32,884 bases of DNA, from positions 1 to 32,884 of the forward strand of contig JBJTWJ010000013.1 in NCBI GenBank assembly GCA_046081665.1, given 5' to 3'. The notes beneath the pieces are model-generated. The model did no database searches, was not told the DNA's origin, and saw only the letters and a program-made list of their open reading frames with translations. Shown here piece after piece: positions 11,506 through 31,452 of this stretch. This DNA is from Alphaproteobacteria bacterium. Lineage in GTDB: Bacteria; Pseudomonadota; Alphaproteobacteria; Rickettsiales; UBA1997. Numbering within the stretch: the first letter of the stretch is position 1; every line of letters starts with the position of its first letter. The translations under genes were made by a program, and so were the position numbers.

Positions 11506-14097
11506 TTAAATAATAAGTGATCTTTGTTTAACTGGGCTTGCTGAAGCGCTTGTAACGCTATTAGATAATCCATGATCTTGATTTTGAGCTCTAGCTCTCA
11601 TAAAGGAATCTTCTTTGTATGCTTTGATTCTTGACATTGCAGCGCTAATCCTTTCGCTATCAAAACCCTTTTCAAGAGCAATATCGTAACAGTTTTTACC
11701 ATTTTTATCGGTAACAAAAGGACTGGCTCCGTAATTAAGCAAAACTTCAATTATTTCTGGACGTCCTCTTTCGAAAGCTAGATGCAGCGCGGTTTTGCCA
11801 TCATTATTTGTTATATCAATTAAAAATTTATTGGCGATCCCATGAATAATTTGCAATTGTCCGCTTACACTCGCCAAATGCAAACATAAATTACCGCAAT
11901 CATCGGTTGAGAAAATCAATTGAGAATTGCGATTTAATAAAGTTCTAAAAACATGTGGATTAGAATTTTCTATGGCCCAGTGGATGCTGTTTTTTCCTTC
12001 ATTATCTTTGCTAAATGGATTGCAGTCAAATTCTAAAAATTTTTTAACTATTTGCCTATGCCCTTTTTCACAAGCTACATGAAAACAACTTTTGCCTTGA
12101 TAATCTTTAATTTCTAAAAAACTTTTTAGTAATTGTTTTTTATCAGAAAAACAATTGAACAAATTAACAATTTCAAAATTTCCATTTTCACAAGCATAGT
12201 GAAAACAAGTTTTGCCAAGATCATCAGGTTTTACTAATTCAGCGAATCTCTTAACAAATGCCTCTTGAATTAAACTTTTTTGATCCAAAGAAGCTCTAAT
12301 TGAAGGATCGGCGTTTTTTAACAACTCGTCAACAAAATCATTGAAGGTCATCGCTTTTGATATTCGGTGAAACTGAGTTTCGTTAGTTTGAGCAGTTTTT
12401 GCAAATTCAGCTAGGATTTTTTCTTGGGTTGAATCCAAAGCAAGCTCCAAAGGCATTTGACTGGATTTATTTAGAGCATTTTGATTGGCCCCATAATTCA
12501 AAAGCATCTTTGCAAGATTAATATTTTCATTTAGACAGGCATGATGAAGAGGGGTAAACTCGTCTTCATCAAATACATTAACATCGGCGTTATTTTTCAG
12601 CAAGAGGTAAGCAATATTGGCATTGTTTTCTTTGCAAGCGATGTGCAGAGGAGTAGCTCCATTTTTATCAACAGCGTTCACGTTAGCGTTATGTTTTAGC
12701 AAGGCGTTTACAACATTTTCATTTCCATAGGCACAAGCCAAATGCAAAGGGGTTTGTAATTGACGGTGTGTTTCATTTATATCGCAACCAGATTTTGCAA
12801 GGACATCGATTAATTTGCCATTTTCCTTTAATACTGCAGTTGCAATTGCACTAAAGCCTGCTTTATCAACCTTATCAATATCGAAACCCAATTCTATTAT
12901 TCTTTTTACAACATCAACATTTCCGCTCTTAACCGCTAAGTTTAAGATAGTATGGCCATCTTGATTTTCCTCATTAAAACTATATCCACGCTTAATTAAC
13001 TCCATAAATATATCGTCTCTTTCAAGTTTTAGAGCTCGGAAAAATGGATTTAATTCAATATTTTCATTAACAAAAAGATTGGCATTATGATCTAATAATT
13101 TCTTAAAATTTTCAAGACTTAAACTATAAGCAAAATGGATTGCGGTAAAGCCAAATTTATTGAGAATATTGGGGTTAGCATTATTGCTTAACAAAATATC
13201 AATAATCTCTTCGTGACCCATTATGTAAGAAATTTGCAAAGCGGTAATTCCTCCATCGTAAATCTTATCAATATCAGCACCTTGCTTTAAATATTTTTTT
13301 ACATCTTCTGCATGCCCATATTGGCAAGCTTCAAATAAAGAGCCATGAGCATAATATGAGTCGGCTCTTTCAAGCAAATAATCGTCACTTGCTATGTCTT
13401 TTGAAAAAAAATCTTTTTTTGACAAATCAAATTGGAAAGATCGATCAACATAGCGTGCAGAAACTTTTTCTGAAAAATCTCCCAGAGGATTGCTAAGGAT
13501 TTCAATAATTAACGGATCAATATCCTTGTTTGCAAGAGAAAGGGCAGTCTCTTTAAAATAATTTTCAATTGAAACTTTAGCGTTTCTTTTTAACAATTTT
13601 TGAATTTCGAAATAATATTTATTTTTAATGGCAAAAGTTAACGGTGTTTCACCGTTATGAAGCTGGTCATTTACATCAAAATTGTGATCTTTCATTAACT
13701 CATCAACTCTTTTATTATCTTGATTTAAACAAGCTTCTTCAAAATCTTTTTGCATTTGCATTAAGCTAATTTTCGCTGAACTATCTATTAATCGAAAAGC
13801 TTCACTTCGATCAATTTCACGAGCATTTATTTTTAACGAAAAAATTTGCCCTATCTTAACAGCAAATTTGGCATGATTATCAGGTTTTAAATTTAACAAA
13901 TCCCTTGCTGACTGCGAAAATCCATCTTTAGCATCAATATTTGCCCCAATCGCTATGAGCTTTGCAAGGGTTTTATAATCTCGCTTAATAAGTGCTTGAG
14001 ATAAAAGCTTACTACTGTCTGGCAATATGGCATTAACCTCAAAATTTGGATCACTAAGTTTATTGGAGGGATACAGATCTTTAGTTGTTGGTAGCAT
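11506..14097 (-). CDS. Large ankyrin-repeat protein (candidate secreted host-interaction effector)
   Basis: 863 aa. More than a dozen ANK consensus units occur along the whole length (e.g. TPLHLACAYGNENVVNALLKHNANVNAVDKNGATPLHIACKENNANIAYLLLKNNADVN; KTALHLAFERGRPEIIEVLLNYGASPF). There is no signal peptide. The C-terminus is a Ser-rich disordered tail. Confidence 0.9.
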   Translation of the reverse strand: MLPTTKDLYPSNKLSDPNFEVNAILPDSSKLLSQALIKRDYKTLAKLIAIGANIDAKDGFSQSARDLLNLKPDNHAKFAVKIGQIFSLKINAREIDRSEAFRLIDSSAKISLMQMQKDFEEACLNQDNKRVDELMKDHNFDVNDQLHNGETPLTFAIKNKYYFEIQKLLKRNAKVSIENYFKETALSLANKDIDPLIIEILSNPLGDFSEKVSARYVDRSFQFDLSKKDFFSKDIASDDYLLERADSYYAHGSLFEACQYGHAEDVKKYLKQGADIDKIYDGGITALQISYIMGHEEIIDILLSNNANPNILNKFGFTAIHFAYSLSLENFKKLLDHNANLFVNENIELNPFFRALKLERDDIFMELIKRGYSFNEENQDGHTILNLAVKSGNVDVVKRIIELGFDIDKVDKAGFSAIATAVLKENGKLIDVLAKSGCDINETHRQLQTPLHLACAYGNENVVNALLKHNANVNAVDKNGATPLHIACKENNANIAYLLLKNNADVNVFDEDEFTPLHHACLNENINLAKMLLNYGANQNALNKSSQMPLELALDSTQEKILAEFAKTAQTNETQFHRISKAMTFNDFVDELLKNADPSIRASLDQKSLIQEAFVKRFAELVKPDDLGKTCFHYACENGNFEIVNLFNCFSDKKQLLKSFLEIKDYQGKSCFHVACEKGHRQIVKKFLEFDCNPFSKDNEGKNSIHWAIENSNPHVFRTLLNRNSQLIFSTDDCGNLCLHLASVSGQLQIIHGIANKFLIDITNNDGKTALHLAFERGRPEIIEVLLNYGASPFVTDKNGKNCYDIALEKGFDSERISAAMSRIKAYKEDSFMRARAQNQDHGLSNSVTSASASPVKQRSLII

Positions 14098-16549: not shown

Positions 16550-17467
16550 ATGACCAAAATATTTAATTTAAGAGGATTTTCTCCTAAGGGATTTTCTCCT
16601 AAGGGATTTTCTCTTATCGAATTATCAATTGTTATTCTAATCATTGGCATTTTAGTAGCAGGCGTAACGCAAAGCTCAAGATTGATTAGCCAAATGCGTT
16701 TAGTAAGCACCAGATCAATAACTCAAGGCTCTAGCATTCCCTCGATTCAAGGGTTGGTTGCTTGGTGGGAATGTTGCGATGAAAAAACTTTTCTTGAAAA
16801 CGAAGCTAACAATAATTCTCTAATTTCAACTTGGAACGATTTAAATCCTACATCAACCTCTAAAAGTAACCTTGTTCAAAGCAATACATTGTCTCAACCA
16901 ACTTATATTAGTTCTTCAATTAACAATTTGCCAAGTTTGCGCTTTGATGGCTCGGATCGCTTTACTACTAACAATTTCTTTAGCGAGACATTTTCGGTAT
17001 TTGTTGTTCTAAGAACCTCAATAGCTGGCAATGGCAACTCTTCTTCTCAGGCATATTTAGGATCTGCGATAATTGGAGCCGACACTCCAGGAACAGCTAA
17101 CGACATTATCCCTTTGGCAATAGGTGGGGGATTTATAAAAATATTTACTGGAAATTCAGAGACAACTTTAACATCGCCTATAACCGTTAACGATAACAAA
17201 CCATATCTAATTTTTTCTAGTCGAAATATTGCCAATGGCAACAGAACCTTGATGATCAATAATTCTAATCTAGTTAGCGACAATCTTGGCGGAACTACGC
17301 CGCTAAATTCAAACCCTCAGGTTGGCATAGGTGCAGACTCAAATCTTGGGGCAACTCCTTTTAGTGGCGATATCAGCGAAGTTATAGTATTTAATCGCAT
17401 TTTATCAACCGAAGAGCGAACCTCAATATCTCAATATCTTGCCAAGAAATACGCCATTAAATTGTAA
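16550..17467 (+). CDS. Pilin-leader + LamG-like paralog A (prepilin-type N-terminal cleavage/methylation domain protein)
   Basis: 305 aa. The leader is MTKIFNLR(GFSPK)(GFSPK)G|FSLIELSIVILIIGILVAGVTQSSRL, with Gly at -1 and Glu at +5. The C-terminus GDISEVIVFNRILSTEERTSISQYLAKKYAIKL resembles the final strands of a LamG/concanavalin jelly roll. Confidence 0.75.
   Translation: MTKIFNLRGFSPKGFSPKGFSLIELSIVILIIGILVAGVTQSSRLISQMRLVSTRSITQGSSIPSIQGLVAWWECCDEKTFLENEANNNSLISTWNDLNPTSTSKSNLVQSNTLSQPTYISSSINNLPSLRFDGSDRFTTNNFFSETFSVFVVLRTSIAGNGNSSSQAYLGSAIIGADTPGTANDIIPLAIGGGFIKIFTGNSETTLTSPITVNDNKPYLIFSSRNIANGNRTLMINNSNLVSDNLGGTTPLNSNPQVGIGADSNLGATPFSGDISEVIVFNRILSTEERTSISQYLAKKYAIKL
16574..16618 (+). 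repeat. 15-bp in-frame tandem repeat (2 perfect units plus 1 imperfect) inside the leader of paralog A
   Basis: GGATTTTCTCCTAAG occurs at 16574-16588 and 16589-16603. GGATTTTCTCTTATC follows at 16604-16618. Together they encode GFSPK-GFSPK-GFSLI. Confidence 0.95.
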
Positions 17468-17508
17468 ATATTTTAGACCTTAAATCCCCATAAATTAATC
17501 ATTAAAAT

Positions 17509-18402
17509 TTAAATTTTAATTGCCCATTTTTTGGCAAGATATTTTTCAGCATCAATTCGTTCGTCGTTACTAATATTTCGATTGAAGAAAATAATTTCTG
17601 CGATATCACCGCGAAAATATTCAAAATTAACCCAAGCATTGCCCCCAATCATCTGGTAATTAGAACCTGTTGCCCTTGGATCAGGAACTGTAGCGGTTGC
17701 AAATTGAGTAGAATTTAAAAAACCTGTCAATGTTTTTGTTGCAGAACTTTTATAAATTGCGGTAAAAATAATCAAAGAATCAGAGCTAATATTACCGGTT
17801 AAAACTTGACTAGCTGTGGTTAAACCACCTGCCAAATAATTAGTAACGCTATATGTTGATGCTTGTTTATAAATTCTTGTCAAATTAATTGGATTGGACC
17901 ACAGCCCTGCTACCAATATGTCGTGATTTTTTACCGCCCCATCATAAGGCATTCTAAAAACTAAAATTATTGTAAAAGCCGAATCGCCAGAAGGGATTGT
18001 GTTATCTGGCAATGACAGAAATTGGCCATTGGTTGCACCATTAAAATTAACCAGAGGTAACGATCCTGAGCTGTTATAAATTGGTCTTCTACCTGTGGTT
18101 GCTTGAGTGGCGTTTAAGGGAGTTGTGGTTTGGGGATTAATATCAAACCAAGTGCTAATTTCACTACCATTACTTGCTTGAATTGGATCAAAACTTTTTT
18201 CTAAAGTAGTTTCTAGCCATAAAACTAAACCATTTATTGATGAAACAGGCGAACTTAAAGTAATTGCTCTTGCTGATTGAATTTTCATAGCGTTAATCAA
18301 TCGCGAAGACTGCGTAACCCCTGCAACTAAGATCCCGATGATTAATATTACAATTGATAGCTCAATTAGTGAAAAAGCGTTTTTTTTGTTAATTTTTAAC
18401 AT
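17509..18402 (-). CDS. Pilin-leader + LamG-like paralog B
   Basis: 297 aa. N-terminus MLKINKKNA|FSLIELSIVILIIGILVAGVTQSSRLINAMK. C-terminus GDIAEIIFFNRNISNDERIDAEKYLAKKWAIKI. Confidence 0.75.
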   Translation of the reverse strand: MLKINKKNAFSLIELSIVILIIGILVAGVTQSSRLINAMKIQSARAITLSSPVSSINGLVLWLETTLEKSFDPIQASNGSEISTWFDINPQTTTPLNATQATTGRRPIYNSSGSLPLVNFNGATNGQFLSLPDNTIPSGDSAFTIILVFRMPYDGAVKNHDILVAGLWSNPINLTRIYKQASTYSVTNYLAGGLTTASQVLTGNISSDSLIIFTAIYKSSATKTLTGFLNSTQFATATVPDPRATGSNYQMIGGNAWVNFEYFRGDIAEIIFFNRNISNDERIDAEKYLAKKWAIKI

Positions 18403-18477
18403 TTTTTATTTTTTTTAATCTAATTCTAGCTAAACTTATTTTTTTATTTTTATTTAGTTGTTTATGTATAAGTTTTG

Positions 18478-19389
18478 TTAAATTTTAATTGCCCATTTTC
18501 TGGCAAGATATTTTTCAACATCAATTCGCTCGTCGTTTTTTAAATCGCGATCATAAAAAATTATTTCGGCAATATAACCATTTAAATAGCGAGAGCGATT
18601 AGTGCCATCAAACCACGAGGCAATATTGTGAGTGGTTGGAATTTTTACCATTCCACTCGGATTGCCAGCCGTTGTCCCTGCTCCTGAAGTTGCGCCATTT
18701 ATATATAATTCCACCGAGGTTCCGCGATCTACAACCGAATAAATATAAGGGATATTGGCAAGAACTCCATTGCGGTTTGCATAATGTAAAGCTGAACTAT
18801 TTCCCAAATAAGAAGCTACTCCAGTTGGCGAGCTTAAATTTGCAGTTCCATCTAATTGATAATGGACTTTACCTAACATCCAAGTGCTACTAGCATTAAT
18901 TAAAACTGCGCAACATCCGCCAGCAGAAACATTTGATGCCGAAATTACTAAAAATATACTGGCTTTTAAACCACCAATTTGCTGGGTTGTGTCTAGATAA
19001 TCATTGCCATCAAATTTTACACAGGGCAGACCATTTAAACAGTTATTAGTAAATCTAGGGCGTTGAGATCCAGAAGAAATAGCATTATTTTTTAACGTTG
19101 ATTGCAAATTTATATCAAACCAAGTTGTGATTTCTGCTCCATCCGATGCTTCATTGGCATCAAAACTTTGTTCCATAGTTGGCTCTAACCACATAACCAA
19201 ATTAGCAATTGATGGAACTGGCGAACCTAAGGTTTGCGATCTTGCAGACTTAAGCTTCATAGCGTTAATCAATCGCGAAGACTGCGTAACCCCTGCAACT
19301 AAGATCCCGATGATTAATATTACAATTGATAACTCGATTAGTGAAAAAGCTTGGTTATTTTTTGTTAAAAATCTTTTATTTTCTGGCAT
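18478..19389 (-). CDS. Pilin-leader + LamG-like paralog C
   Basis: 303 aa. N-terminus MPENKRFLTKNNQA|FSLIELSIVILIIGILVAGVTQSSRLINAMK. C-terminus GYIAEIIFYDRDLKNDERIDVEKYLARKWAIKI. Confidence 0.75.
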   Translation of the reverse strand: MPENKRFLTKNNQAFSLIELSIVILIIGILVAGVTQSSRLINAMKLKSARSQTLGSPVPSIANLVMWLEPTMEQSFDANEASDGAEITTWFDINLQSTLKNNAISSGSQRPRFTNNCLNGLPCVKFDGNDYLDTTQQIGGLKASIFLVISASNVSAGGCCAVLINASSTWMLGKVHYQLDGTANLSSPTGVASYLGNSSALHYANRNGVLANIPYIYSVVDRGTSVELYINGATSGAGTTAGNPSGMVKIPTTHNIASWFDGTNRSRYLNGYIAEIIFYDRDLKNDERIDVEKYLARKWAIKI

Positions 19390-19433
19390 GTTAACTGATT
19401 GATAATTTTTATAAAATTGAATTTAAATTGAAT

Positions 19434-20336
19434 TTAACTGGCAATTTTAATTGCCCATTTACGGGAAAGATATTGCTCCACCGCTTTACGCTCTTCAGTG
19501 TTTAAGGCTCGCGAATAAAAAATGATTTCAGCAATGTCAGCATTGTAATAAATGGAGGGATTGCCCCCTGAAATTCTTGGACCAATATGAATTTGAGTAA
19601 TATTAAAATTGCCTGTTGAGTTAGCAGGAGTATAGCCTGTTCCATTGATGTACGCAATATTAGTTGAGCCATTAAAAACTGAATCAGCAATAAATGAATT
19701 ACCATTTCCAGGGTGACTGCCCAGCATTGCTAAACAAAGTAATCCAGAATTTCTTCCGGGGATCATTCCACCACCTCCACCTTCATAAAATCCTGTAAAA
19801 GATTCAACGTTTGTGTAATCATTTCCTGAAGGACCTGTGCCGTTAATAATGCTTGAATCTTGCACCCAAGCGATTCTTCTAGCAACGATGAAGTAGGTTA
19901 ATTGCGGTCCTGAAATTCCAACTTGGTCAACTCGCAAATAATCGTCTACACCTGCCAATCGAACTGAAGGCAAACCGTTAATACCATTTTCAATAAATTT
20001 TGGACGGTTATTAGTGAGCGGTGGAAAAGCATTGAGTTTATAAGTTGCTTGGGGATTGTTATCATACCACATCGTTAATTCACTTAGATCTTGCTCTTCA
20101 GTATCATTAAAACTTTTTTCCAAAGTTGCTTCATACCATAATGCCAAATCTTTAATGGTTGGAACTGGCGAAGAGTTAGTGATATTTTGAGCCGTTAATA
20201 AACGAATTCGCTTAACTAAACGAGAAGATTGCGTAACCCCAGCAACCAGGACGCCGATGATCAATATTACAATTGATAGTTCAATTAAGGAAAAAGCTTT
20301 AGCTAATTTTTGATGTCTTTTTAATATTCTTGACAT
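19434..20336 (-). CDS. Pilin-leader + LamG-like paralog D
   Basis: 300 aa. N-terminus MSRILKRHQKLAKA|FSLIELSIVILIIGVLVAGVTQSSRLV. C-terminus ADIAEIIFYSRALNTEERKAVEQYLSRKWAIKIAS. Confidence 0.75.
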   Translation of the reverse strand: MSRILKRHQKLAKAFSLIELSIVILIIGVLVAGVTQSSRLVKRIRLLTAQNITNSSPVPTIKDLALWYEATLEKSFNDTEEQDLSELTMWYDNNPQATYKLNAFPPLTNNRPKFIENGINGLPSVRLAGVDDYLRVDQVGISGPQLTYFIVARRIAWVQDSSIINGTGPSGNDYTNVESFTGFYEGGGGGMIPGRNSGLLCLAMLGSHPGNGNSFIADSVFNGSTNIAYINGTGYTPANSTGNFNITQIHIGPRISGGNPSIYYNADIAEIIFYSRALNTEERKAVEQYLSRKWAIKIAS

Positions 20337-27044: not shown

Positions 27045-27992
27045 ATGTTTAAAATAAATAAAGTTAAAGCATTCTCATTAATTGAATTATCAATTGTGAT
27101 ACTCATCATTGGCATATTAGTTGCTGGGGTTACGCAAAGCTCTAGGTTGATTAATCAGGTACGTTTAACTTCTGCTCGCTCATTGACCTTTGGCTCTCCT
27201 GTTTATACTATAAAGGATCTTTACTCCTGGCAAGATGCAGTTTCTGAAAAAAGCTTTATTGATAGCGAAGCCAGTAACAACACAGCAATAAGTACTTGGT
27301 ATGATATTAATCCAACAGCTCTATCCGATCGTATAAATTTTGTGCAAACCGATAATGCTCGTAAACCAATCTTCATTTCAAATGCAATTAATGGTCTTCC
27401 GGGATTGTATTTTAATGGTGCTTATTTTTTAAGAAGCGAAAGAAATGTTTTACCATTTTTTGGAATGGGATCAGCTACAATTTTTATGGTTTTTATTGCT
27501 GATAATGTGGCTGGTCAGAAATTTATGTTAATGCATCCAATTGCTAACTGTGCAAAAAATGCTGAAATTGGAATTGGTGTTGCTAATATAGTTAGCGGTA
27601 ATTTTGGAGTTCACGCTGGATGTGGAATTGGAACTATCACTAATGGTAATGTTATTTCGGTATCGCAACCTACTATAGTTTCAATGGCATTTTTGAGTAG
27701 TCCTTTGACAGCTGGAACCACTGCAAATATAAAAATTTTTAAGAATGGTGGAACTGAATTACCTTTAGTTGGTTCTGGTGGAAGTTATACCCAAAGCATG
27801 GGTGGGGTATATGGCAATGCCATATCACCATTGTTAATTGGTTTAAGAGATGACAATAACAATGGCGGATATAATTCAGGTTTTGTCGGTGATATTGGCG
27901 AAATTATAATTTATTCTCGAACCTTAAACACCGAAGAACGCCAAGCTGTTGAAAAATATCTTAGTAAAAAATGGGGAATCGCCATTCAATAA
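27045..27992 (+). CDS. Pilin-leader + LamG-like paralog E
   Basis: 315 aa. N-terminus MFKINKVKA|FSLIELSIVILIIGILVAGVTQSSRLINQVR. C-terminus GDIGEIIIYSRTLNTEERQAVEKYLSKKWGIAIQ. It starts 6 nt after the hemE stop. Confidence 0.75.
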   Translation: MFKINKVKAFSLIELSIVILIIGILVAGVTQSSRLINQVRLTSARSLTFGSPVYTIKDLYSWQDAVSEKSFIDSEASNNTAISTWYDINPTALSDRINFVQTDNARKPIFISNAINGLPGLYFNGAYFLRSERNVLPFFGMGSATIFMVFIADNVAGQKFMLMHPIANCAKNAEIGIGVANIVSGNFGVHAGCGIGTITNGNVISVSQPTIVSMAFLSSPLTAGTTANIKIFKNGGTELPLVGSGGSYTQSMGGVYGNAISPLLIGLRDDNNNGGYNSGFVGDIGEIIIYSRTLNTEERQAVEKYLSKKWGIAIQ

Positions 27993-28028
27993 ATTATAAT
28001 TATGAAAAATATTTATTTCTCATAAAAA

Positions 28029-28895
28029 ATGTTAGAAACTAACAAAAGTAATAAATTTTCATTAAAAGCATTCTCATTAATTGAATTATCAATCGTGATA
28101 CTCATCATTGGCATATTAGTTGCTGGGGTTACACAAAGTTCTAGGTTGATTAATCAAATGCGTTTAGTTTCTGCTCGCTCAATGACTTTTAGTTCTCCAG
28201 TTCCAGCAACACCAAACTTAATTGCTTGGTATGAGTCTGTTTCAGATAAAAGTTTTGAAGAATCGCAAATGAGCGATCAAGCGTTATTGTCAAGTTGGTA
28301 TGATATCAACCCAACGACTACTGACAAAAAAAATTCATTTCAAAGCACTGATCTCAATAAGCCACAATACTCAATTGATTCGTCATCAGGTTTACCAGTT
28401 GTAAAATTTGTTGACCAAGATTTTTTTATAATGCCCGACGGCACTATTCCTTTTGGTAACACCCCTTATACGATTATTTTTGTTTCCAAAACAAATGCCT
28501 TTTGTGTTTGTGGAGTTTTGGGTTCGGGAATTTATCAAAATAATCAATCTAATGCTTTTCGCTACGATCCAACAGCAGGGCTTTTTTATAATTATTGGTT
28601 TTTGGTTGATTTAGCTTTAAGCAATGCTTCATTAAGAGATAAAATGCAAATCTTTACTTTTACTTACAATTTATCTCTTCGCGAAGGTTTTGTTGATGGT
28701 GTTTTTAAGGGAAGCGTTGCTTCGAGTAATCGAGCTAGCTCAAGCACTAACAATCGAATCGGATATTCCTTTGCTTCTGAATATATGAATGGGATTATTG
28801 CAGAGATTATAATTTTTGATCGTGCACTGAAAACCGATGAACGAAAAGCTATTGAATCTTACCTTGGCAAAAAATGGCGAATATTTGTTCAATAA
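28029..28895 (+). CDS. Pilin-leader + LamG-like paralog F
   Basis: 288 aa. N-terminus MLETNKSNKFSLKA|FSLIELSIVILIIGILVAGVTQSSRLINQMR. C-terminus GIIAEIIIFDRALKTDERKAIESYLGKKWRIFVQ. Confidence 0.75.
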   Translation: MLETNKSNKFSLKAFSLIELSIVILIIGILVAGVTQSSRLINQMRLVSARSMTFSSPVPATPNLIAWYESVSDKSFEESQMSDQALLSSWYDINPTTTDKKNSFQSTDLNKPQYSIDSSSGLPVVKFVDQDFFIMPDGTIPFGNTPYTIIFVSKTNAFCVCGVLGSGIYQNNQSNAFRYDPTAGLFYNYWFLVDLALSNASLRDKMQIFTFTYNLSLREGFVDGVFKGSVASSNRASSSTNNRIGYSFASEYMNGIIAEIIIFDRALKTDERKAIESYLGKKWRIFVQ

Positions 28896-28974: not shown

Positions 28975-29083
28975 TACCCTGTATGGATATACAGCTTTAT
29001 TTTTTAAAGATTTTTAGCCAAAAAGATGAAGCTTAATTTATTAATACCCAATTGTATCATTTATTAAGTGGAAATGGTATTAC
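28975..29083. repeat. MITE-like palindromic repeat family, copy 4 (one arm)
   Basis: CCTGTATGGATATACAGC…AGATTTTTAGCCAAAAAGATGAAGCTTAATTTATTAATACCCAATTGTATCATTTATTAAGTGGAAATGGTATTAC. This is nearly identical to the arm at 1600-1685 and 7215-7275. Confidence 0.75.
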
Positions 29084-29141
29084 TTCCTATTTAGATAATT
29101 TTTTCTTGAATAAAATTTTTGGGTATTTAACTTTAAAAAAT

Positions 29142-29612
29142 ATGAAAATTAAAAAAAATAACAACAATAAATTATCAAAAAATTTTACTAAGAAATCAGT
29201 AAAATCAACTATCAAAAGCAAGAAACGTAAATCATCTAATTCGTCTTCAGATGAATTAAATATTAAATATTTCGTTAACTGGCTGGTTAAGGTATTTTAT
29301 GGTGTTTTATGTGATAATGGCAAAAGCGTTATAAAGCCTTTGATGTGGCTGTTTTTTGTAAATTTTGTTTTTTATCAAATTTATTGGATGGTTTTTTTGT
29401 TGAAAAAAAATTGTAGTTTACTGTTTGTTTTTCTAAAAACTCTTAATCCCTTCTTTTTGCCTAATGAGATGCTGTGCATCTTTGATCACATTCAGCGCAA
29501 TCAATCTTTTTTAAGAATAAATTCCTTACAATTTCTTTTAAATATTTTGCTAATTTTTCTGTTAATCAATTCATTATTCAATAAATTTTTTGCTAAGAGA
29601 TATTCCAAATAG
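29142..29612 (+). CDS. Hypothetical membrane protein (Lys/Ser-rich N-terminus, hydrophobic C-terminal half)
   Basis: The first 30 codons of the track ORF 29052-29612 lie inside repeat copy 4. I therefore prefer the internal ATG at 29142 (MKIKKNNNNKL…). Hydrophobic segments include PLMWLFFVNFVFYQIYWMVFLL and FLLNILLIFLLINSLF. I recognise no family and it could be a decayed remnant. Confidence 0.35.
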   Translation: MKIKKNNNNKLSKNFTKKSVKSTIKSKKRKSSNSSSDELNIKYFVNWLVKVFYGVLCDNGKSVIKPLMWLFFVNFVFYQIYWMVFLLKKNCSLLFVFLKTLNPFFLPNEMLCIFDHIQRNQSFLRINSLQFLLNILLIFLLINSLFNKFFAKRYSK

Positions 29613-29934: not shown

Positions 29935-31452
29935 ATGGTTGCACACACACAAACCTTCTCCTTCGCTGGTATTGATGCCATTGCGGTTGCTGTTCAAGTT
30001 AAAATATCTTCGGGAAATCCAACTTTTACTATTGTTGGCTTGCCCGACAAATCTGTTGGTGAGTCCAAGGAAAGAGTTCGTGCTGCTATTACTTCAACTG
30101 GTCTGGCTTGGCCATTTCAAAAAATTACTGTTAATCTTGCTCCTGCTGATTTACAAAAAGAAGGCGGGCATTTTGATTTGGCTATAGCGCTTGGCATTAT
30201 GATTGAAATAGGTATTTTACCTCAGGAATTATTGCGTGATTATTTTGCAATTGGTGAGCTAGGTTTAGATGGGAGCATTAATAGTGTTAACGGTGTTATT
30301 TCCTCGGCAATTTCTGCTAATCAACGCAATTGTGGTTTAATTTGTCCACAAGAAAATGGCAAAGAAGCAGTATGGTCTGGCAATTCTAAAATAATCGCTA
30401 CAACAAGTTTGATTCAATTAATAAATCATCTTAAAGGCGAGCAAGCCATCGCTCGCCCAGATCTTGTTGCTATTGAGCAAGATAATTTCGCTAATTACCC
30501 AGATTTAAATGATGTTAAAGGTCAAAATATTGCGAAGAGAGCGTTAGAGATTGCAGGTGCAGGAGGTCACAATCTTTTAATGGTTGGACCACCTGGAACT
30601 GGAAAATCAATGCTTGCATCACGTTTAATTGGAATTTTGCCACCACTTGAATTAATGGAGATACTTGAAATTAACATGATCGCAAGTATGAGCGACAAGA
30701 TTGTTGATGGCAAGCTTCTTACCAAGAGGCCTTATCGCGAAGTTCATCATTCTTGTTCAATGCCAGCAATGGTTGGAGGCGGGGTTCGTGCCAAACCCGG
30801 CGAAGTCTCGTTGGCTCACCGCGGAGTTTTATTTCTCGACGAACTTGCTGAATTTCCAAGGCAGGTTTTAGATTCGCTTCGCCAACCTCTTGAAAATGGA
30901 ATTATCAATATTTCTCGCGTTAATTCTCACATAACTTATCCAGCAAATTTTCAATTAATCTGTGCCATGAACTCATGTCGATGTGGCTATCTTGGCGATG
31001 CAAAGCGCGAATGCAAAAGAGCCCCAACATGCGGACAAGAATATAAAAGCAGAATTTCCGGACCGCTTCTTGATCGTATTGATATTGTAATTAATGTTTT
31101 GCAGGTTGATTTTTTTGGCGATAGTAATCAAAACCTTGAATCATCCAAGGATGTTAGGCAAAGGGTTATTGATGCTCGTAAAATTCAAAATCAGAGATAT
31201 AAACAATTTAAGGATGCTGAATTTTTTGGCAAAACAAATTCTGAAGTTGAGTTTAAGGTTATTGAGCAATTTTGTGTTTTTGAAGGAGATGGTCAAAAAA
31301 TTTTAGAAAATTATGTTAAGAAATCGAAATTGTCTAATCGCTCAATCTCAAGAATTTTAAGAGTTGCAAGAACAATAGCCGATCTTGAGAGCAGGTCTAA
31401 GATCAGTGCGGATAACCTTTATGAGGCGATTTCGCTTCGCCGAGACGTTTAA
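29935..31452 (+). CDS. comM: YifB/ComM family Mg-chelatase-like AAA+ ATPase
   Basis: 505 aa with an N-terminal Lon-protease-like domain (…FTIVGLPDKSVGESKERVRAAI…). Walker A is MVGPPGTGKSM and Walker B is GVLFLDELAEF. A Cys cluster (CRCGYLGDAKRECKRAPTCG) and a C-terminal ChlI-type helical domain are present. Confidence 0.9.
   Translation: MVAHTQTFSFAGIDAIAVAVQVKISSGNPTFTIVGLPDKSVGESKERVRAAITSTGLAWPFQKITVNLAPADLQKEGGHFDLAIALGIMIEIGILPQELLRDYFAIGELGLDGSINSVNGVISSAISANQRNCGLICPQENGKEAVWSGNSKIIATTSLIQLINHLKGEQAIARPDLVAIEQDNFANYPDLNDVKGQNIAKRALEIAGAGGHNLLMVGPPGTGKSMLASRLIGILPPLELMEILEINMIASMSDKIVDGKLLTKRPYREVHHSCSMPAMVGGGVRAKPGEVSLAHRGVLFLDELAEFPRQVLDSLRQPLENGIINISRVNSHITYPANFQLICAMNSCRCGYLGDAKRECKRAPTCGQEYKSRISGPLLDRIDIVINVLQVDFFGDSNQNLESSKDVRQRVIDARKIQNQRYKQFKDAEFFGKTNSEVEFKVIEQFCVFEGDGQKILENYVKKSKLSNRSISRILRVARTIADLESRSKISADNLYEAISLRRDV

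Follow-up and report, generated by a model that had tools for sequence, protein, structure and literature searches.

Modular pilins in which a class III signal motif (IPR012902/PF07963) is fused to a Laminin_G_3 domain (PF13385) rank among the 15 most common modular pilin architectures (Raynaud et al. 2021, PMC8179133). S. sanguinis PilC is a tip-located, glycan-binding lectin pilin (Shahin et al. 2023, PMC9934059; PDB 7OA7/7OA8). In addition, type IV pili are ancestral in Rickettsiales, are kept in aquatic and basal lineages, and have been proposed to act in host attachment (PMC9352585, PMC10847448). Six paralogous genes in the stretch of DNA analyzed here (32,884 nucleotides in all, hereafter the window) code for LamG-bodied, pilin-like proteins (LamG-pilins; Table 1). 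Their general design is thus an already catalogued type of modular pilin. An earlier note on this DNA had allowed that they might prove to be an already characterized class; the architecture is indeed catalogued (PMC8179133) and PilC is a characterized analogue (PMC9934059), but the family itself is uncharacterized. Uncultured Rickettsiales-like bacteria of fresh water carry it in many copies. We found more than 1,300 homologs, nearly all in freshwater or groundwater Rickettsiales-like metagenome-assembled genomes (MAGs). Each genome carries at least 12-19 copies, always dispersed among housekeeping genes.

The earlier note had described a cluster of four genes in an alphaproteobacterium-like genome, and the genome is Rickettsiales-like. 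The four ORFs (A to D, 16550-20336) are real, with exactly the coordinates and strands given there according to the ORF listing; however, the family in the window has six members, as E and F lie at 27045-28895, which accounts for the six proteins to which the note also refers. The flanks, previously read as NDUFAF7-like and hisH, are a Methyltransf_28/NDUFAF7-type gene and a class-I GATase gene. All six genes are full-length and have start codons of their own, and their products share one layout, namely a short basic leader, an (A/G)↓FSLIE class III signal, a near-invariant alpha-1 helix of ~40 residues, and a LamG/ConA jelly roll of ~245 residues. Global pairwise identity among the six is 38-46% (35-40% versus protein A in the six-way alignment), a level of protein similarity far above chance. 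The regions that A to D had been said to share also appear in the six-way alignment, which displays an invariant FSLIELSIVILIIG(I/V)LVAGVTQSSRL with Glu at +5, a semi-conserved block (W72, F81, W95-x-D97-x-N99, P117, and L127-P128), a poorly alignable middle, and a conserved end (I-x-E-x-I...R...ER...YL..K..I).

Table 1. LamG-pilin genes and associated features in the window
Feature	Coordinates	Strand	Description
Paralog A	16550..17467	+	305 aa; leader MTKIFNLRGFSPKGFSPKG, cleavage-type site G↓FSLIE (Phe+1 at 16607), alpha-1 helix, LamG body
Paralog B	17509..18402	-	297 aa; leader MLKINKKNA, A↓FSLIE, Phe+1 codon from 18375
Paralog C	18478..19389	-	303 aa; AF2 model: leader 1-14, alpha-1 helix 17-54, jelly-roll strands 64-279, C-terminal helix 285-298
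Paralog D	19434..20336	-	300 aa; leader MSRILKRHQKLAKA, A↓FSLIE, Phe+1 codon from 20294
Paralog E	27045..27992	+	315 aa; directly downstream of hemE; beyond the interval of the earlier note
Paralog F	28029..28895	+	288 aa; beyond the interval of the earlier note
Tandem repeat, 15 bp x 2.9, consensus TAAGGGATTTTCTCC	16569..16613	+	duplicates GFSPK in the leader of A; TRF score 81
5' segment of B, codons -1 to +31	18283..18378	-	near-identical DNA to adjacent C segment 19255-19350
5' segment of E, codons -1 to +31	27069..27164	+	near-identical DNA to adjacent F segment 28068-28163

The N-terminus of the paralogs is recognizable as a class III (prepilin) signal followed by an alpha-1 helix, given its short basic leader, Phe at +1, Glu at +5, and hydrophobic stretch. 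Profile searches agree, with TIGR02532 (NCBIfam) above threshold in all six proteins and N_methyl (PF07963) above the Pfam threshold in five (25.8 bits in A), F falling short of it (19.0 versus 21.2). Leaders are 9-19 aa long in the window; across 108 copies of the family the median is 8 aa and the net charge +3, and Phe1 and Glu5 are invariant. Type IV pilins generally have Gly at -1 and only rarely Ala, whereas Ala is the rule in this family, being found in five of the six paralogs (Gly in A only) and in 95 of 108 copies family-wide (Gly in 13). The leader shows no constraint when orthologs are compared (47% identity, dN/dS ~1.5), and that of A's ortholog, MIKIFNLKG, does not contain the tandem repeat. 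Constraint peaks over residues +1 to +40 (92% identity, dN/dS 0.039), and no other part of the protein is as constrained as Glu5, Gly14, and the alpha-1 helix as a whole. The leader would most likely be removed by a prepilin peptidase.

The AF2 model of paralog C (pLDDT 86.5, pTM 0.83) consists of the N-terminal helix, an all-beta body, and a C-terminal helix. All Foldseek matches to it at E <= 1e-3 (287 in the PDB and 492 in BFVD; best E 6e-9 and 3e-15, respectively) are lectin-like jelly rolls, including clostridial neurotoxin Hc domains, trans-sialidases, and S. sanguinis PilC (7oa7/7oa8) in the PDB and phage tail/virion ConA-like proteins (E 3e-15, 23% identity) in BFVD. In the Pfam search, Laminin_G_3 (PF13385) exceeded the cut-off in A only (28.3 versus 27.6), was sub-threshold in B, C, and F (22.9, 19.6, and 23.4 bits), and had no match in D and E; many homologs carry a precomputed PF13385 annotation. 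The family profile matches the 4qvs LamG domain (E 5.5e-6) and also a sialidase CBM40 domain. The predicted body is thus a two-sheet LamG/ConA-like jelly roll, and both this fold and the class III signal had been correctly anticipated. The fold and the functions of its structural neighbors suggest that the body is a lectin, probably a glycan-binding one. A canonical pilin has an alpha-1 helix of ~53 residues packed on a 4-5-stranded antiparallel sheet (the alpha-beta roll). This fold is absent from the AF2 model, where the jelly roll comes directly after the ~40-residue helix with no alpha-beta roll head, and the Foldseek matches to pilins arise solely via the lectin module of PilC. With a short helix and no alpha-beta roll, the proteins cannot be assumed to enter a filament.

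In the closest relative, all six paralogs have 1:1 orthologs (82-89% identity, dN/dS 0.06-0.12). The identities are 86% for A (locus L001), 87% for B (L001 8135-9046), 84-86% for C (P0002), 89% for D, and 82% for E (L001 387-1334). The dN/dS values are comparable with those of neighboring housekeeping genes (0.016-0.157), and the LamG-pilin genes are real and maintained under purifying selection. Since this selection extends to the supposedly variable core (88% identity, dN/dS 0.076), the repertoire is old and stably kept, not hypervariable. The differences among paralogs are concentrated mid jelly roll, and their divergence, as judged from these comparisons, is ancient and fixed rather than ongoing.

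Our search for assembly machinery took in the window and 1.07 Mb of related loci. Profile searches confirmed that the 33-kb window holds no pilus or secretion assembly genes (pil, gsp, or tad). Of the components that the earlier note had proposed to look for elsewhere, a platform protein and a peptidase-like gene turned up in related genomes, together with a probable major pilin, whereas an ATPase and a secretin did not. The T2SSF (GspF/PilC-type) platform protein is encoded in the closest relative (L051, BJGH01000005; PF00482 E 2.9e-43, TIGR02120 254 bits) and in L025, and the clade's protein scores highest on the GspF model. The prepilin-peptidase-like protein (A24_N_bact, 78 bits versus a cut-off of 23) has 355 homologs, of which the 120 listed are 65-92% identical; RIFCSPLOWO2_01_FULL_40_26 encodes one, and another is on the REEB497 contig that also carries L030. 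The first catalytic Asp of the protein is invariant, its second catalytic motif reads S(F/Y)DYTKF in place of GxGDxKL, and the Peptidase_A24 Pfam domain is undetectable in it. The protein thus appears conserved yet divergent, its A24 catalytic domain included, and is a candidate prepilin peptidase. A single-copy pilin lies ~2 kb from its gene in a conserved mini-locus. This pilin has the N-terminus AFSLIELSIVLIIIGLLIAGVTGG, almost the same as that of the LamG-pilins, as well as a 51-residue alpha-1 helix and a conserved Cys pair; its best Foldseek match, C. difficile PilA1, is weak (E 0.03). It is likely the major pilin. Neither PilB/GspE, PilT, nor a secretin occurs in the window or the 1.07 Mb of related loci, an absence that carries no information at ~0.9 genome-equivalents over 32 genomes. 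The sole T2SSE-family match is VirB11 of a type IV secretion system. Because the clade's pilus genes lie dispersed among housekeeping genes, missing machinery nearby says little.

We consider it reasonably probable that the products of the six genes are modular subunits resembling type IV pilins, each showing a different lectin module on a type IV filament. The short basic leader would be cut after Ala/Gly(-1) by the clade's divergent prepilin-peptidase-like enzyme, and the invariant, Glu5-bearing alpha-1 helix would then put the subunit into a pilus or a T2SS-like pseudopilus. Such a filament would be built on the GspF/PilC-type platform, probably with the conserved single-copy canonical pilin. 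The ~245-residue jelly roll, standing in the place of the normal pilin head, would be displayed as a receptor-binding module, probably for glycans. If S. sanguinis PilC and PilB are a guide, the LamG-pilins would most likely be low-abundance or tip-located adhesins, and the family probably serves attachment to a host or prey. Since the paralogs are ancient, are each under purifying selection, and differ mid jelly roll, they would most likely form a fixed panel of differing binding specificities for host or prey surfaces, and not a means of antigenic variation.

The earlier note had instead seen a variable repertoire with a diversified core. Such a fast-diversifying, variable or phase-variable set of adhesins, with an exposed core under diversifying selection or cassette recombination, would agree with the barely alignable cores of the paralogs, with conserved 5' and 3' ends that recombination could use, with the tandem repeat in the leader of A, and with a cluster gene order that differs between the window and the closest relative. 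In addition, the near-identical 5' DNA of adjacent paralogs (3 differences in 96 nt for B/C and 6 in 96 nt for E/F, versus 21-32 for non-adjacent pairs) points to local gene conversion between neighbors. However, the conversion tracts do not extend beyond the invariant 5' end, the window contains neither silent nor partial cassettes, and the ortholog comparisons run counter to the proposal, the core evolving no faster than housekeeping genes. We regard a variable repertoire as very unlikely.

It is somewhat easier to imagine, if still unlikely, that the LamG-pilins are themselves the major polymerizing subunits, forming thick lectin-coated filaments or mixed ones with combinatorial specificity. 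In archaeal pilins and archaellins the N-terminal helix likewise leads directly into a beta-sandwich, and the AF2 model, with its alpha-1 helix running straight into such a body and no pilin head, would suit this build. So would the very many gene copies, all full-length in the window, and an N-terminus that is the most strictly conserved part, as expected if helix-helix packing among many subunits matters. Against this, the separate single-copy pilin beside the peptidase-like gene, with its longer alpha-1 helix and Cys-bonded C-terminus, is the more natural major subunit, the alpha-1 helix of the LamG-pilins is short, and those modular pilins that have been characterized are minor subunits located at the tip (PMC8179133, PMC9934059). 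We give similarly little credence to a role outside filaments, in which the prepilin-like N-terminus would be an anchor or export signal, leaving the LamG body at the inner membrane, in the periplasm, or released, or in which the proteins would be piston pseudopilins of a T2SS-like system. Use of the N-terminus as an anchor or export signal is suspected for many pilin-like proteins of Planctomycetes and Verrucomicrobia. The divergence of the peptidase-like protein, the preference of the platform protein for the GspF model, the ATPase and secretin not found so far, and the fact that family genes never adjoin machinery genes are all compatible with such a role. The N-terminus also has weak GspH and GspG model matches, but these reach only the first ~25 residues (17-23 bits versus cut-offs of 80-89). 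Moreover, a mere anchor would not need the constraint seen on Glu5, Gly14, and the whole alpha-1 helix, and the body is like the modules with which phages, toxins, and PilC bind receptors outside the cell.

The LamG-pilins agree with the definition of modular pilins in that PF07963 and PF13385 occur in one protein (PMC8179133). That catalogue is a count of InterPro architectures, not a characterized family, and the LamG-pilins differ from it in their occurrence in Rickettsiales-like MAGs only, their near-invariant 26-residue N-terminus, their Ala at -1, and their multiplication and dispersal within small genomes. PilC has in common with them a pilin-like N-terminus with Glu5 and a ConA-like lectin module; it matches the AF2 model with a Foldseek E of 5.5e-7 (TM 0.50/0.45) at only 11% identity, and the family profile with an E-value of 0.34. 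It comes from a monoderm, has a processed mass of 52.8 kDa, and carries a short pilin moiety and an Ig-like module ahead of the lectin, whereas in the LamG-pilins the jelly roll comes straight after the alpha-1 helix. Furthermore, PilC has a single gene, located within the pil machinery locus, whereas the LamG-pilin genes are multi-copy and unlinked to machinery. T2SS GspH and GspG share with the LamG-pilins the ~25 N-terminal prepilin residues (NCBIfam), and their bodies are unrelated. An identity as GspG or GspH was rejected, as TIGR01710/TIGR01708 gave 13-23 bits versus cut-offs of 80-89 and aligned only model residues ~1-28. The best structural matches overall are ConA-like/LamG receptor-binding proteins of phages and giant viruses (BFVD E 3e-15, 20-23% identity, TMq ~0.6). 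Giant-virus contigs encode the same ~235-residue module in 5-24 tandem copies within giant proteins, including the C-terminal "...EIIxFxRALxxxERxxxExYLxxKW" strand-helix, at a per-module identity of only 24-28%. These viral proteins are without a prepilin N-terminus and are virion or fiber proteins rather than filament subunits.

The earlier note had described four pilin-like ORFs (A to D), and all four were recovered with the positions and strands it had assigned to them. A six-frame motif search together with the ORF list uncovered two extra paralogs, E and F. A six-way alignment of these LamG-pilins (i.e., proteins in which a class III prepilin signal and alpha-1 helix are fused to a LamG/ConA jelly roll) bore out the layout proposed in the note: an invariant N-terminus of 26 residues, FSLIELSIVILIIG(I/V)LVAGVTQSSRL, is followed by a semi-conserved block, a poorly alignable middle, and a conserved C-terminal strand and helix. 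In this alignment, proteins B to F are 35-40% identical to protein A, and the global pairwise identity among all six is 38-46%. Pfam N_methyl scored above threshold in five of the six paralogs and TIGR02532 in all of them; Laminin_G_3 was above threshold in A and below it in B, C, and F. Position -1 of the predicted cleavage site is occupied by Ala in all paralogs except A, which has Gly. Membership in the GspH or GspG families was dismissed after a comparison of NCBIfam models. The leader of paralog A contains a 15-bp tandem repeat (x2.9) that duplicates GFSPK, giving three G|FS motifs in a row; it is missing from the ortholog in the closest relative (LBMAG epi.bin2), and this leader may be slippage-prone and variable in length.

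Locations of the LamG-pilin genes and of other features in the window and in related loci (L-numbers)
Feature	Sequence	Position	Strand
Paralog A	window	16550-17467	+
Paralog B	window	17509-18402	-
Paralog C	window	18478-19389	-
Paralog D	window	19434-20336	-
Paralog E	window	27045-27992	+
Paralog F	window	28029-28895	+
Tandem repeat in leader of A	window	16569-16613	
Near-identical 5' segments of B/C	window	18283-18378 / 19255-19350	
Near-identical 5' segments of E/F	window	27069-27164 / 28068-28163	
Ankyrin-repeat protein	window	11506-14097	-
Lys-rich ORF	window	29052-29612	+
ComM/YifB-type ATPase	window	29935-31452	+
Conserved pilin mini-locus	L029	15538-19046	
Same mini-locus	L021, L053, L082, L083		
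Split LamG-pilin	L026	5393-6319	
Split LamG-pilin	L042	4628-5482	
Split LamG-pilin	L058	11154-12079	
Split LamG-pilin	L073	2074-3001	
Giant tandem-module protein	L081	8711-12451	

The other genes of the window are housekeeping genes (BrkB, CorA, BamA, PstS-like, UvrA, polyprenyl synthase, an 863-aa ankyrin protein, BioB, Methyltransf_28, class-I GATase, DUF2628, L20/L35, GrpE, ClpP, ClpX, HemE, and a ComM-like Mg-chelatase), and it holds no pil, gsp, or tad gene, as the note had stated. Within the syntenic block, only the ankyrin-repeat gene lacks conservation with the closest relative (25% identity vs 83-99% for the neighboring genes), and its product may be a fast-evolving, effector-like protein. 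Directly 3' of E and F lies a Lys-rich 186-aa ORF without a Pfam match and with a hydrophobic C-terminus, followed by the ComM/YifB-type Mg-chelatase-like ATPase; ComM is tied to natural transformation in other bacteria. A sigma-70 promoter scan returned 17 sites against 17.2 expected and is thus uninformative for DNA as AT-rich as this.

To obtain a structural model, we supplied AlphaFold2 with protein C and a family alignment of 51 sequences. The model (pLDDT 86.5, pTM 0.83) consists of a helix (residues 17-54), an all-beta body (strands within 64-279), and a C-terminal helix (285-298); the jelly roll comes directly after the ~40-residue alpha-1 helix, and the alpha-beta-roll head of canonical pilins is absent. 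Foldseek revealed 287 matches in the PDB at E <= 1e-3, every one a lectin-type jelly roll. They include the N-terminal subdomains of tetanus and botulinum toxin Hc, trans-sialidase lectin domains, an arabinanase accessory domain, a cyanophage tailspike, and the Streptococcus sanguinis minor pilin PilC (7oa7/7oa8; E about 6e-7, TM 0.50/0.45). Predicted viral structures match better (E 3e-15, 20-23% identity), namely phage ConA-like tail or virion proteins and giant-virus proteins. In addition, the family profile matches the solved LamG domain 4qvs (E 5.5e-6) as well as the sialic acid-binding CBM40 domains of pneumococcal sialidases. Collectively, the model, the Foldseek results, and the profile matches make the LamG assignment of the pilin body, first suggested in the note, a sound one.

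The body is a discrete module of ~235 aa that includes the C-terminal strand-helix EIIxFxRALxxxERxxxExYLxxKW, and it also occurs outside pilins. An exhaustive profile search yielded 118,884 matches at E <= 1e-3 and 6,018 at E <= 1e-30, with giant proteins (1.2-7 kaa) carrying 5-24 tandem copies of the whole module at the top (P0241-P0389). The gene for one of these giants shares its contig with a eukaryote-type Rpb1 (RNA polymerase) gene and with collagen-repeat genes. In IMG/VR, >586 related stretches were found (loci L084-L158), including giant-virus (GVMAG) contigs and contigs of up to 501 kb. Judged by sequence, pilin bodies and giant-protein modules belong to a shared LamG subfamily. Because the giant proteins and the pilin bodies are only 24-28% identical per module, we rejected the idea that the body was recently acquired from giant viruses by horizontal transfer.

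A protein search with protein C returned 1,313 homologs, of which the few with names ([quoted passage not shown] or "LamG domain-containing protein") come from Alphaproteobacteria or Rickettsiales MAGs, and a scan of one genome per species detected at least 375 coding stretches. The best 78 loci are spread over 32 genomes, and almost all of these are Rickettsiales-like MAGs from freshwater or groundwater with a GC content of 27-43%. By HMM count, the fetched loci hold 107 full-length copies, with at least 19 in one Loclat MAG, at least 12 in LBMAG epi.bin2, and at least 9 in another genome; the genes are always single or in small clusters amid housekeeping genes. F1 and E5 are invariant in 108 copies, position -1 is Ala in 95 and Gly in the other 13, the leader has a median of 8 residues and a net charge of +3, and 31 of the 108 share an identical 26-residue N-terminus. 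Some members are split into two adjacent ORFs that encode the N- and C-terminal halves, which may reflect pseudogenes, frameshift-type phase variation, or assembly errors. One contig labelled Lentimonas sp., a verrucomicrobial MAG (L015, JBLHVR010000007), carries six copies at 33% GC with alphaproteobacterial-type neighbors (FixH, AddB-like helicase) and is probably mis-binned or mislabelled. Several Swiss-lake MAGs bear placeholder names ("Rickettsia typhi", "Rhizobium sp. Q54").

Type IV pilus components have been reported from basal and aquatic Rickettsiales, where a role in host attachment has been proposed (PMC9352585, PMC10847448). We searched 3,651 ORFs of the window and 79 related loci with regular-expression motifs and with phmmer, using E. 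coli GspD/E/F/G/H/I/J/K/L/M/O as queries. These searches matched two PilC/GspF-like proteins, an ATPase in L078, and, at the edge of L015, a truncated GspE-like fragment. The first are GspF/PilC-type platform proteins (PF00482, E 2.9e-43; TIGR02120, 254 bits, under the equivalog cut-off), encoded on a contig of the closest relative (L051, BJGH01000005) and in one second genome. In both genomes, the platform gene stands alone between def/purN/pgk and a BioD-like gene, the latter being the ORF 3' of pilC that had been suspected to be pilD. The L078 ATPase was assigned by NCBIfam to VirB11 of a type IV secretion system and is the sole T2SSE-family protein found in the window and related loci. The six-copy cluster of L015 was likewise discarded as a machinery operon, its flanks being enolase, ThiC, PBP, and FixH. 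PilB/GspE, PilT, and secretin were not seen in the window and related loci, which carries little weight since these total only ~0.9 genome-equivalents.

Four loci encode a prepilin-peptidase-like protein whose A24 N-terminal zinc-ribbon domain scores 78 bits against a cut-off of 23 and is the only part recognized by Pfam. Its first catalytic Asp aligns with that of E. coli GspO, and its second motif is S(F/Y)DYTKF, not GxGDxKL. In this clade, the altered motif goes together with Ala(-1) in virtually every pilin-like substrate, and the two may have arisen by enzyme-substrate co-evolution. The protein has 355 homologs; the 120 listed are 65-92% identical, and some of them come from genomes, and even from one contig, that also carry LamG-pilins. 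The gene belongs to a conserved mini-locus (prs, cytochrome c, pilD-like, ahcY, greA, a ~260-aa pilin, and a 94-aa membrane ORF). Lying ~2 kb from the peptidase-like gene, that pilin represents a second, single-copy class of about 255-265 aa (120 homologs listed, 49-97% identical), whose N-terminus (AFSLIELSIVLIIIGLLIAGVTGG) nearly matches that of the LamG-pilins. Its AlphaFold2 model (pLDDT 85.8) has an alpha-1 helix of 51 residues, a beta-sheet, and a conserved Cys pair. Since Foldseek matches to canonical pilins are weak (PilA1, E 0.03), we infer rather than assert that this class supplies the major pilin.

A rapidly varying repertoire, along the lines of the variable one suggested in the note, is contradicted by the dN/dS comparison with the closest relative. 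Its syntenic locus has the same 4+2 arrangement, and the paralogs form clean 1:1 orthologs of 82-89% identity, with the cluster order shuffled (D-C-B in the window, B'-D'-C' in the relative). For the five comparable ortholog pairs, dN/dS is 0.06-0.12, values also spanned by the housekeeping genes on either side (0.016-0.157). Even the "variable core" is 88% identical between orthologs (dN/dS 0.076), close to the conserved block (82%, 0.092) and the C-terminus (85%, 0.081). The divergence of the paralogs is thus old, and each paralog is now conserved. The leader (53 codons) is 47% identical with a dN/dS of ~1.5, and the alpha-1 helix 92% identical with a dN/dS of 0.039; in these alignments, an unconstrained leader beside a maximally constrained mature N-terminus is the expected look of a cleaved prepilin. 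At the DNA level, this invariant N-terminus is kept mostly by selection, since synonymous sites differ freely (21-32 differences over the N-terminal 96 nt between non-adjacent pairs). Across the ~96 nt at the start of the mature coding sequence, the adjacent pairs B/C and E/F differ at only 3 and 6 positions despite ~45% protein identity overall, and the most similar 5' segments of the relative are also an adjacent pair (B'/D'), a sequence pattern that indicates local gene conversion between adjacent paralogs.

Domain architecture, fold, conservation, and family expansion are direct observations, and genes for a platform protein, a peptidase-like protein, and a canonical pilin are present in the clade. 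We propose that the leader would be cleaved after Ala/Gly(-1), that the subunit would enter a type IV filament through the shared alpha-1 helix, and that the displayed LamG module would act as an adhesin for glycans or receptors, with a fixed set of specificities spread over the paralogs. If PilB/PilC of S. sanguinis are taken as a model, LamG-pilins are most likely minor or tip subunits, with the single-copy class as the putative bulk component. Alternatively, the LamG-pilins might themselves be the bulk subunits of lectin-coated filaments; or they might stay membrane-anchored or act like T2SS-type pseudopilins and never reach pili. A bolder reading, which we regard as improbable, is that genome-reduced, probably ectosymbiotic freshwater Rickettsiales build type IV filaments whose subunits join the alpha-1 helix directly to a receptor-binding jelly roll of phage/giant-virus type, with dozens of paralogs co-polymerizing or swapping at the tip on the shared helix to form a combinatorial "lectin pilus" that sets protist-host range. 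Such a pilus, if real, would be to these bacteria what receptor-binding-protein repertoires are to viruses, and its structure would have converged on that of archaeal helix-plus-beta-sandwich pilins.

The proposal that Rickettsiales ancestrally attached to their hosts by type IV pili was derived solely from the presence of machinery genes, with the pilins unexamined (PMC9352585, PMC10847448). The LamG-pilin family offers concrete candidate adhesins, i.e., a large conserved lectin-type panel with one assembly helix, through which early-branching or extracellular Rickettsiales may recognize their hosts. Judging by copy number and the lengths of the sampled contigs, we estimate that the family fills about 1% or more of such small genomes. 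If displayed on pili, it could explain protist-host recognition by uncultured, probably extracellular Rickettsiales. Since pilus genes are fully dispersed in these lineages, operon-based pilus searches will miss such systems.

Our literature search found no paper on this family. Its kind is already known: pilins with a PF13385 module rank among the 15 commonest modular-pilin architectures (PMC8179133), and the lectin-bearing pilin PilC has been characterized, with its structure solved and binding of sialylated glycans at the pilus tip demonstrated (PMC9934059). In contrast to these known systems, LamG-pilins lack both a pilin head and an Ig spacer, indicating that modular pilins can drop the head entirely. 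They also use Ala at -1, are encoded by multi-copy genes unlinked to machinery, and are confined to uncultured Rickettsiales-like lineages.
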